Shown here: positions 29,333 through 37,095 of the stretch, in pieces
Position numbering within the stretch: position 1 is the first letter of the stretch
Layout: the number at the start of each line of letters is the position of its first letter
Assembly (NCBI GenBank): GCA_963715335.1
Contig: CAVQRZ010000009.1
Span: forward strand, 117,861-181,860
Source of the DNA: an uncultured delta proteobacterium
GTDB taxonomy: Bacteria > Desulfobacterota > Desulfuromonadia > Desulfuromonadales > BM103
Reading direction: 5' to 3'
Length of the DNA: 64,000 nucleotides
Translations under genes and position numbers: made by a program
Notes under the pieces: generated by a model
The model's input: only the letters and a program-made list of their open reading frames with translations
What the model was told of the DNA's origin: nothing
The model's database searches: none

Positions 29333-29623
29333 TCAAGCGGGTTGACAGGTCATGCCAGGAGGAAAGTCGAGACCGAGCATGCGGTCGAGAACGCCCCGTT
29401 CATCGAGGTCGAAAAGCTCTGGGCAGCCGCCGACCAGAGCGTCGTTGACGAAAATTTCCGGGACGCTCTGGCGTTGACTGCGTTGCTGCATTTCTGCTGC
29501 CTTGAGGAGGTCGTTGGTGATATCATGCTCAACAAAATCCACCCCCTTGATGCGCAGGAGGTCCTTGGCACGTTGGCAGTAAGCGCAGTTGCGCTTGGTA
29601 TAGATTTCTACACTGATTCCCAT
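29333..29623 (-). CDS. grxC: Glutaredoxin (Grx3-like)
   Basis: IYTKRNCAYC, SVPEIF and VGGC motifs. Confidence 0.85.
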   Translation of the reverse strand: MGISVEIYTKRNCAYCQRAKDLLRIKGVDFVEHDITNDLLKAAEMQQRSQRQSVPEIFVNDALVGGCPELFDLDERGVLDRMLGLDFPPGMTCQPA

Positions 29624-35087: not shown

Positions 35088-35125
35088 GGCGGAACACAAC
35101 GCCCCGCAACAACGGGGCATTGTTT

Positions 35126-35659
35126 CAGGCTGCTGGATACGTTCAACCAGACTTCACGATAGAGAGGGCAACAGATTAAGCGTCTGTTGCCCTTTTCCAT
35201 TGGACGTTGGAAATCAAAGACAAAGGCAAAACCCGGGGGTCGCGCCCCCCGACTGCGCCTTACTCTTTTGTTGGCCCAAAAGAGTAAGCAGAAAAGGGCC
35301 TGCGCTGCGCTGGGCATGTCTGGTGCGTCAAGGCGGCAACCTCAATTCAGGCCATATTAACCGACTAAATGTTTACGCTTCCCCCGCAGGAGCCGAGGCT
35401 CTTGAGAGCCTCTCCTGCTGTGGAGACTTGCGTCGGTAGAGGTTCTTTTGGCTTTCCCCTTTTAAATCACAGAGAAAGGTCAGGCCCTTTGACACAGGGC
35501 CGGATCCCCATCAGTAAAGGTTTTTGAAGTCACAGAAATCAGGCCTAGGGGATGCCCTCCGCAAGGAGAAGGCACTTTTGCATACTTTTGTTGCCGGGCA
35601 AAAGTATGGCGTCGGGCGGGACGCGACCCGCCGGTTTTGTCTTTCAAAAAATGCTCAAG
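35126..35659. repeat. ~535-bp multi-hairpin non-coding repeat, copy 2
   Basis: Homologous and same orientation as 104-640. Confidence 0.9.
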
Positions 35660-35688
35660 ACAACAACTCAACCTTTTGATGATAGCCC

Positions 35689-35717
35689 TTGCAAAAAACA
35701 TGAGGTTTCTATATATT
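35689..35717 (+). promoter_or_regulatory. Probable sigma70 promoter of the small ORF
   Basis: TTGCAA-N17-TATATT. Confidence 0.55.
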
Positions 35718-35746
35718 GAATATACAATCAATCTACGAGGGAACAA

Positions 35747-35899
35747 ATGAAATCTTTACTGGTTCTTTTGGCCGTCATTGCCGCCTGGTACATCCTCAAC
35801 CGCTGGATTCTACCGCATTTTGGGGTTGAGACCTGACTCTCCGGAGCCTGTGAACTCCCCGTGCGGGAGGAAGACAAGGATGATGAAGGAAAAAGCTGA
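35747..35899 (+). CDS. Small membrane protein with in-frame TGA (codon 30), candidate selenoprotein
   Basis: GAGGGA RBS; MKSLLVLLAVIAAWYILNRWILPHFGVET-U-LSGACELPVREEDKDDEGKS*; terminator follows the second TGA. Confidence 0.65.
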
Positions 35900-35902
35900 C
35901 AT

Positions 35903-35937
35903 AAAAAAGCCCCGGCCGTAAAGGTCGGGGCTTTCTG
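35903..35937. terminator. Bidirectional terminator
   Basis: aaaaaagccccggcc-gtaa-aggtcggggctttct between convergent genes. Confidence 0.85.
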
Positions 35938-35952
35938 TTTCAATACCAGCCT

Positions 35953-36282
35953 CTAACGCAGGCTCGTGGCGCAGCGCGGGCAAGTGAACATGCTGGTGGA
36001 CGGCACCTTGTGACCGCAGGTCGGACAGTTGAACCAGTATCGGCAGTACTTGCATTGCGGGTCTGAAAGTCCCTGTTTTTTCTTGCACTTGGGGCATTGG
36101 CGGTACATCTTGCGATGGGTGATGTATTCTGCAAAGATCAGCCCGCACTTTGCGCAGACCTTGGCGTCCCGACGATGATTCGTGGCCTCGCAGCGCGGCG
36201 CCGGACAGACATAGACAGTATGACAGTTGTCACACCAGTTCTTGCCGCGCGTCATCTCTTTACATACCGAGCATTTTTCCAT
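35953..36282 (-). CDS. Cys-rich multi-zinc-ribbon hypothetical protein
   Basis: Eight Cys pairs in 109 aa; GAGG RBS. Confidence 0.8.
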   Translation of the reverse strand: MEKCSVCKEMTRGKNWCDNCHTVYVCPAPRCEATNHRRDAKVCAKCGLIFAEYITHRKMYRQCPKCKKKQGLSDPQCKYCRYWFNCPTCGHKVPSTSMFTCPRCATSLR

Positions 36283-36467
36283 CAGAACACCTCAAGCGCT
36301 TCTCGTCCGATATTAATTTCTGCCCCTACAACATAATCAATTGACCAACAAATTGCCAGTATGTTATCGGCAAGTTACTGATAAAACAGGGAATCATAGA
36401 CAGATAAAGCGCAAAATCAAAAAGCCGGACCGCTCGGCCCGGCTTTCAACTCCTGCGGGATGAAGAT

Positions 36468-36977: not shown

Positions 36978-37095
36978 GATTCTCTCCTTTCAATGAAAAT
37001 AATTTGACAAACATAAAAGCAGATCAATATTATCGATTTCGCTGGGCATGTCAACCACGTGTATTTTTTCTGTAATGACTATGGAGTAACGCCTA

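Follow-up and report, generated by a model that had tools for sequence, protein, structure and literature searches.

A probable 50-residue membrane selenoprotein with a Sec-x4-Cys pair is widespread in Desulfobacterota

Does the short open reading frame that begins at position 35747 of the window (the whole 64,000-nucleotide stretch of DNA analysed here) end at its in-frame TGA after 29 codons, or is that TGA read as selenocysteine (Sec) in a small membrane protein, and what might such a protein do? An earlier note, made from the letters alone, had proposed a 50-residue membrane-anchored selenoprotein at this locus, and the promoter, ribosome-binding site, ATG (35747-35749), TGA at codon 30, Cys35 codon and second in-frame TGA (35897-35899) that it described are all present. 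The features of the locus are:

35689..35717, + strand: sigma-70-type promoter, -35 at 35689-35694 and -10 at 35712-35717 (-10 core in 30 of 34 order-level loci)
35710..35731, + strand: operator-like motif overlapping the -10 box, candidate site of a presumed ArsR-family regulator (top genome-wide matrix match)
35737..35742, + strand: ribosome-binding site GAGGGA (sequence; purine-rich counterparts in relatives)
35747..35899, + strand: 50-codon open reading frame with TGA30 putatively read as selenocysteine, encoding protein P0001 (comparison of homologs)
35750..35818, + strand: single hydrophobic helix, residues 2-24, predicted N-out/C-in anchor (AlphaFold; charge bias)
35834..35836, + strand: in-frame TGA, codon 30, predicted Sec30 (TGA in 73 of 73 phylum loci; TGC or TGT in 68 Cys loci)
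35849..35851, + strand: Cys35 codon, partner in the U-x4-C pair (Cys at +5 in 56 of 58 TGA loci)
35855..35869, + strand: SECIS-type hairpin with 5-bp stem, 5-nt loop and G at loop position 2 (fold, cross-genome comparison, PMC13188914 model)
35903..35945, no strand assigned: intrinsic terminator-like hairpin, probably bidirectional, before the convergent zinc-ribbon gene (fold of -25.1 kcal/mol)

A pattern scan of 35400-36300 found no promoter besides that at 35689-35717 (0.4 expected). The upstream neighbours are GltD-like and NuoG/Fdh-like genes, which we take to be sfrBA, and the downstream neighbours encode a zinc-ribbon protein and a rubrerythrin; because the latter two are convergent, the small gene forms its own transcription unit. 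The earlier note had set it between sfrBA and a redox cluster, and these flanks are confirmed, but the downstream genes lie on the opposite strand and the synteny is limited to the family. A functional link to sfrBA or rubrerythrin was rejected because of that narrow synteny and because the rubrerythrin promoter motif differs (0 of 25). The terminator expected after the second TGA does fold, with an A-run ahead of the stem and a U-rich run behind it, though the pattern scan did not list it; similar stems are also found in family loci. Three other elements of the region were recorded. On the minus strand at 29333-29623, upstream of the sfrBA-like genes, lies an ORF labelled glutaredoxin-like from its CAYC motif. 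Between the sfrA-like gene and the small gene (35100-35660) is a non-coding element that is met again on contig C31, beside an octaheme cytochrome. Many partial RNA-library contigs, with joints inside them, align to the element, which could be a MITE-like repeat present in several copies or else a structured RNA; an Rfam search over 35090-36000 gave nothing reaching gathering score. A different conserved AT-rich box, presumably resembling a Fur/PerR site, precedes rubrerythrin (window ~36980-37060) in 25 family loci.

AlphaFold models the small protein as one helix (residues 2-24, pLDDT ~90 over residues 1-20) followed by a low-confidence tail. Helix and hinge residues W14, N18, W/Y20, P23 and G26 are conserved. 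Net charge is higher on the C-side than on the N-side of the helix in 195 of 232 family sequences, equal in 32 and lower in 5; by the positive-inside rule the Sec/Cys pair should therefore face the cytoplasm, a predicted N-out/C-in topology. A lipobox has G, A or S at -1 of a Cys that follows an uninterrupted signal peptide; position 30 is preceded by an invariant Thr, with charged residues and a Pro ahead, and a lipoprotein was ruled out.

A strong match to the small gene is present in 40 of the 44 genomes of the family (41 matches in all, every one with a single TGA), and two further family genomes gave weak, chance-level matches only. In an even sample of 401 Desulfobacterota genomes, 176 carry a match (E<=0.01). 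Named relatives are Desulfuromonadales and delta-proteobacterial MAGs. A paralog search of the own genome found no second copy, a search of viral contigs and plasmids gave no match, and four genomes (G011, G113, G255, G329) have two matches each. Among the matches listed, 73 loci were read at the DNA level, 58 in full and 15 picked as weak, short or unparsed; near-duplicates of family loci (L053-L057) were excluded from the counts, and L082, missed by the motif parser used for the first 58 loci, is counted in the later-read set. All 73 loci have TGA at the equivalent codon and none has TAA or TAG, and the sequence is conserved past this point, in keeping with the proposed read-through. The frame stays open for 15 codons beyond the TGA in 58 of 58 loci, versus 44 and 17 in the other two frames, and runs to mixed terminal stops (TGA 24, TAA 22, TAG 12), giving a tail of 16-37 aa after Sec. 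Ser stands at +2 (Ser32) in 55 of the 58, with TCN and AGY codons both in use; Cys is found at +5 in 56 (TGC 31, TGT 25) and at +6 in the remaining two. The U-x4-C pair described earlier is thus usual, but it is not invariant: the second Cys is absent from 5 of the 15 weak TGA matches and 9-15 residues away in 3, and because it is lost or far displaced in these 8, the U-x4-C ring is not obligatory. Five TGA forms without a second Cys (L229, L232, L235, L236, L240) make up a Sec-only subfamily, in which a qualifying SECIS-type hairpin is kept in L229, L232, L235 and L240 (L236 unscored). In 3 runs that come from 2 studies, RNA-library contigs from relatives read across the TGA; they are no proof of expression because they are low-depth, ~85-90% identical, unstranded and possibly DNA.

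The bacterial SECIS model in the Fig. 2 legend of PMC13188914 has a loop of 3-9 nt lying 16-37 nt after the UGA, a stem of 4-16 bp, G at loop position 1-2 and an energy of <= -7.5 kcal/mol. The hairpin claimed for this locus is found at 35855-35869 (stem 35855-35859/35865-35869, loop 35860-35864), its stem beginning 18 nt and its loop 23 nt after the TGA, with a pairing probability of 0.99 for two stem pairs. The SECIS prediction stands as to geometry (5-nt loop, 5 bp, G at position 2, 23-nt spacing); the isolated 5-bp hairpin folds at -6.5 kcal/mol versus the model limit of -7.5. The 57-nt region including the lower stem folds at -15.2 kcal/mol (z -0.42), an energy no better than chance, and on the sequences compared the significance of the hairpin comes from cross-genome comparison and not from energy. 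A scan with the model of that legend and our own floor of -3 kcal/mol detected a qualifying hairpin in 55 of 58 TGA loci, the loop lying 21-24 nt from the UGA in 52 of them, against 16 of 66 Cys loci, where the spacing is scattered and 3 are at 21-24 nt. Over 20 diverse rows, 79% of cells are paired in the commoner register of the hairpin and 27 changes are double-sided; 0 of 500 shuffles did as well, and this register stands out as a clear peak against slid controls. It was chosen from the tested sequences themselves, among rows whose kin are not independent. In these rows the register of the own gene (5-nt loop) reaches 46% of cells, since the majority of distant homologs adopt one that is displaced by two columns.

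A profile of 31 TGA members retrieved 1171 proteins, and the best 120 of these have Cys30 in 57, an end at Thr29 in 57 and Trp30 in 6; the Trp30 entries are most simply putative TGA=W gene calls. The truncation at 29 aa that the earlier note had foreseen for annotation pipelines is thus seen in 57 of the best 120 database matches, and the family stands in databases in shortened or unnamed form although it is common among sulfur-cycling bacteria. An exhaustive protein search gave 1368 representatives at 50% identity, of which the best 150 show Cys (116), Trp (15), truncation (10), Arg (3), Leu (2), Gly (1) or Lys (1) at position 30, two of these other residues being parsing slips, and two unparsed entries show Thr-Cys. 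At 68 distinct metagenome Cys loci codon 30 is TGC (55) or TGT (13). Since these loci were fetched with one restrictive Cys-specific pattern and some of them are related, counts made over them, those of neighbouring genes included, are not independent. The Cys carriers with a name are an Obscuribacterales MAG and a Myxococcales MAG, and the tails of many Cys forms hold extra Cys. In the ESM Atlas the sole match is a 'hypothetical protein' cluster at 0.85, whose commonest phylum is Planctomycetota (known for 5 members).

These homologs bear on the plainest alternative, that translation simply ends at TGA30 to give a membrane peptide of 29 aa, the conservation downstream being that of an RNA element or a restarted tiny ORF. 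Gene callers do give the 29-aa form, and a truncated product arises whenever selenium is short, as Sec genes in general yield a shortened product when it is scarce. The codon right after the TGA is ATG, CTG or TTG in 36 of 58 loci, which would suit a restart; in the other 22, including the own gene (CTC), it is not a usual start. TAA and TAG are absent from 73 loci despite the mixed terminal stops, the Cys homologs are continuous ORFs, Ser32 and Cys35 vary synonymously, and the hairpin is specific to TGA forms, all of which leaves an ordinary stop very improbable. Stop and restart into a second peptide was rejected.

The decoding machinery is in place. Besides selB and tRNA-Sec, the own genome (G000) carries selD, which has an in-frame TGA of its own, and selA in two copies: that on contig C40 is intact, whereas a frameshift and a TGA interrupt that on C6. 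The genes on which the earlier proposal depended, selA, selB, selC and selD, are all accounted for. The stretch C40:1-8112 duplicates the region before selB at C6:143086-151177 with 89-98% identity, and the selA of C6 differs by small indels and by a TGA that lies close to the 5' end; the duplication is probably a strain mixture or an assembly error (6.87% contamination). Across the phylum, selB was found in 372 of 401 genomes. Seven of the 29 genomes lacking a full selB match carry the TGA gene; selA exceeds the cut-off in 6 of these, selB is present as split pieces in 2, and the one without selA has tRNA-Sec. A Cys-based profile found no match in the 22 remaining selB-negative genomes (positive control 5 of 5). 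Because selB is near-universal in the phylum, this co-occurrence is a consistency check and not a strong test. As judged from sequence comparison, the small gene very probably encodes a true selenoprotein, in which SelB, acting on the hairpin that starts 18 nt downstream, would recode UGA30 as Sec. A leader peptide that senses selenium and governs the genes after it through read-through would likewise be a short ORF with a recodable codon, and downstream genes are co-directional in some distant loci. Here and in most family loci, however, a terminator and a convergent gene follow, and the Cys forms keep the same protein motif without any recoding; we consider a leader peptide scarcely credible, and it was rejected.

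The gene is alike to those of known SelB/bSECIS selenoproteins of bacteria in its in-frame UGA, downstream hairpin, Sec machinery and Cys homologs, and differs from the catalogued ones in that its product lacks any folded domain. The earlier note had recognised no selenoprotein family here, and the searches agree. Compared by motif and name, none of the 119 families in Table 1 of PMC13188914 has a U-x4-C motif or a fitting name, and none of the Haft families given there with NCBIfam or Pfam identifiers was matched; the TsoB UxxxxU motif is assigned there to a rhodanese/DsbD fusion. NCBIfam 20.0 had no significant match for 31 TGA and 37 Cys members, and Pfam no fitting model, giving weak TM-helix matches only, such as ATP synthase b (E>=0.027 for b/b'). 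The nine new deep-Sep families, so far as PMC12013277 sets them out, have other domains or NCBIfam models that gave no match. Foldseek against the PDB gave no match, and with one helix, a disordered tail and x4 spacing, a thioredoxin-fold UxxC/CxxU selenoprotein was ruled out. Literature listings and abstracts do not describe the family, with an earlier mention possible in Haft and Tolstoy 2025, Deng et al. 2026 or BSepDB. Our verdict is a new, widespread family: the gene is of a known kind, but its product is built in an unusual and minimal way.

What the protein does was approached through its gene neighbours. Two Cys-family proteins (P0229 and P0250, both single-contig records) are fused N-terminally to thioredoxin, and a search of longer proteins found one further match. 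Within 700 bp of 40 dereplicated Cys loci lie a YgaP-like TM gene (22), whose start codon often overlaps the stop of the Cys form, zf-HC2 anti-sigma genes (20), thioredoxin (8), ArsR (2) and DUF302 (2). A nearest-ORF scan of 40 Cys loci added bd-I-like genes (5), RND parts (4), TauE (3), MBL-rhodanese (2), Pyr_redox (2) and peroxiredoxin (1), and the wider flanks hold ECF sigma factors and further RND, rhodanese and thioredoxin genes. TauE, MBL-rhodanese and SQR are markers of persulfide-handling operons, and the gene listings agree with this. In Escherichia coli, YgaP is a membrane sulfurtransferase, as reported in PMC4730233, and stands under YgaV, a sulfide-responsive ArsR, as reported in PMC9774250. 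A complex prediction for a Cys-form member with its YgaP-like neighbour scored 0.02, the mark being 0.32, and counts neither for nor against contact between the two. A bd-I-like protein lies just downstream of the Cys form and YgaP-like gene in L089, L092, L102, L114, L125, L134, L140, L147, L155 and L156, and one of these recurrent proteins carries a C-terminal cytochrome c domain.

The TGA forms mostly stand alone, and no YgaP-like gene was found near them in 58 loci. Among 28 distant TGA loci, none has zf-HC2 nearby, and adjacent genes include ArsR (5), thioredoxin (2-3), thioredoxin-reductase-like (1), AhpC/TSA (1), convergent CcdA (2) and an ArsR-gene-DUF302 layout (1). Most distant TGA loci have unrelated neighbours, and the sulfur-operon context is mostly that of Cys forms. 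An operon of ArsR, small selenoprotein, Cys-rich ORF, zinc-ribbon and thioredoxin was seen in L073 and L080 (also L066, L067, L071 and L076), with a CcdA-like gene after the thioredoxin in L066. Its zinc-ribbon protein, presumably FmdB-like, is encoded by an ORF that closes with Phe-Thr-TGA and has 1-2 sense codons beyond, which could mean a Sec at the C-terminus.

Promoter comparison adds unlinked genes to this picture. A conserved element, here the imperfect inverted repeat ATTG-N6-CAAT, covers the -10 box in 30 of 34 order-level loci and was absent from the 22 loci searched outside the order. With a matrix built from 30 relatives, the own gene left out, the own promoter ranks first of 63 genome matches >14 bits, followed in second place by a site upstream of an octaheme tetrathionate-reductase-family cytochrome; the third match is the TolC-HlyD-AcrB-YgaP operon promoter, and RND and YgaP-like gene types also flank Cys homologs. 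A match of >=14 bits to this matrix, which is AT-rich and includes the -10 hexamer, lies upstream of the octaheme cytochrome in 19 of 23 family genomes (L197, a window artefact, and L193, too short, excluded), of the RND-YgaP operon in 10 of 14 and of an ArsR gene in 10 of 20, versus 0 of 25 for rubrerythrin and 18 of 533 for AT-richer control windows. L077 was too short for the promoter scan. Column-shuffled matrices equalled the observed median in 0 of 30 (cytochrome), 1 of 30 (RND) and 1 of 30 (ArsR) trials. Judged by these motif matches, the small gene, the octaheme cytochrome and the TolC-HlyD-AcrB-YgaP operon appear to share one regulon. Its regulator is probably a conserved Cys-containing ArsR repressor (C5:93181-93480 in G000), whose gene occurs in 42 of the 44 genomes of the family; it shares 56% identity with the ArsR encoded next to one Cys-form gene. 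At C31:63135-67128 (L168) a monoheme cytochrome, a porin-like gene (frameshifted in the assembly) and the octaheme tetrathionate-reductase-family cytochrome lie together, and in genus g11 the octaheme cytochrome is near the TolC-HlyD-AcrB-YgaP operon.

The arrangement recalls the YgaV-YgaP and BigR/SqrR regulons, which likewise have an ArsR-family repressor (a predicted one here) over the promoter, a YgaP TM domain and rhodanese-type partners. The YgaP-like TM protein here stands alone without a rhodanese domain, unlike E. coli YgaP. The SqrR site is ATTC-N8-GAAT as given in PMC9774250; the motif here has a 6-nt spacer versus N8, and the local ArsR scores 59.8 bits versus the BigR model cut-off of 155, both outside what defines SqrR, BigR or YgaV.

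With about even confidence, we propose that the protein, tethered to the membrane with its Sec/Cys pair towards the cytoplasm, works as a redox or sulfane-sulfur relay that thioredoxin recycles. In this order the gene is transcribed alone, probably under the Cys-containing ArsR repressor, both regulator and signal being putative. The helix would anchor the protein N-out/C-in, so that Sec30 and Cys35 lie on the cytoplasmic face of the membrane, before the disordered, charged tail. Sec30 (Cys30 in non-selenium forms) would act as the reactive nucleophile, taking sulfane sulfur or oxidising equivalents from membrane-side sulfur chemistry and closing a selenenylsulfide or polysulfide bridge with Cys35, an optional resolving residue; cytoplasmic thioredoxin would then recycle Sec30.

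The earlier note had left the pair as redox or metal, and the neighbours and fusions of the Cys homologs lean towards thiol/sulfur redox, with metal as a lower-rated rival. A Sec/Cys pair holding a soft metal (Cu, Hg, Zn) at the membrane, either to buffer it or to pass it on to an efflux pump, would suit the ArsR/SmtB-family, CusB/HlyD-type and AcrB-type neighbours, the MerR neighbour in one locus and the extra tail Cys of many Cys forms. It fits poorly with neighbours that are thiol and sulfur enzymes, with the absence of CopA, CopZ, MerA/T/P and CDF from the 109, 90 and 99 neighbour ORFs scanned (the 99 out of 183 wider-flank ORFs), and with the loss of Cys35 in some TGA forms, which leaves a single ligand; we hold metal binding to be improbable. 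The same three sets of ORFs lack MNIO, DUF2063 and DoxX, and an MNIO-modified CxxxxC RiPP precursor was ruled out: such precursors share a hydrophobic N-terminus and the CxxxxC motif with the small protein and, as described in PMC12452194, have signal peptides and adjacent MNIO, DUF2063 and DoxX genes.

The main rival, somewhat less improbable than metal binding, is a small accessory subunit of a membrane complex. Its helix would dock on the RND pump, the YgaP-like or the bd-I-like protein, and its Sec/Cys pair would gate that partner as a redox switch; this reading does not exclude the relay. Its models, AcrZ and CydX, are ~40-50 aa with one helix and were overlooked by annotation, and AcrZ is co-regulated with an unlinked RND pump; we know of no Sec/Cys redox pair in either, and Pfam and Foldseek gave no match to proteins of this type by sequence or fold. 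Small size, a single helix with conserved W14, N18, W/Y20, P23 and G26, the promoter motif common with the unlinked TolC-HlyD-AcrB-YgaP operon, and Cys forms that overlap the YgaP-like start or precede bd-I-like (5 of 40) or RND genes (4 of 40) all speak for such a subunit. The first gene of the RND operon, though, occurs in 14 of 44 family genomes (E<=1e-30) versus 40 of 44 for the small gene, tblastn of the bd-I-like and zf-HC2 neighbours in the own genome gave no match, and the thioredoxin fusions suit a relay better; an accessory subunit thus seems rather unlikely.

By analogy only, the proposed relay resembles the eukaryotic proteins SELENOK and SELENOS, which are also small single-pass membrane selenoproteins with a disordered cytosolic tail. 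The Sec-Cys bond of SELENOS is reduced by the thioredoxin system; in both proteins Sec lies within the last few residues, and the SECIS is in the 3'-UTR. In the present protein Sec is residue 30 of 50, 6 residues past the helix, and Pfam shows no similarity. More tentatively than the relay itself, we suggest that this widespread Desulfobacterota selenoprotein is a domain-less Sec-x4-Cys sulfur relay, an architectural analogue of SELENOK/SELENOS, and that with the YgaP-like protein, RND pump, thioredoxin and octaheme reductase it might form a new ArsR-controlled sulfane-sulfur transport or detoxification system (ECF/anti-sigma-linked in Cys-form lineages).

Decoding here is of the ordinary kind. 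An uncatalogued and very common family enlarges the bacterial selenoproteome, and current pipelines miss selenoproteins of ~50 aa; this one, if true, was overlooked owing to its small size. A bare membrane anchor carrying Sec and Cys is without counterpart among the bacterial families checked. How polysulfide moves across the envelope of sulfur-respiring Desulfuromonadia is called open in PMC13510729, and the small gene, its operator motif and its candidate regulon bear directly on that question. The small protein probably helps cells handle reactive sulfur and, if the reading is true, ranks among the most widespread selenoproteins that Desulfobacterota have (matches in 176 of the 401 genomes sampled).
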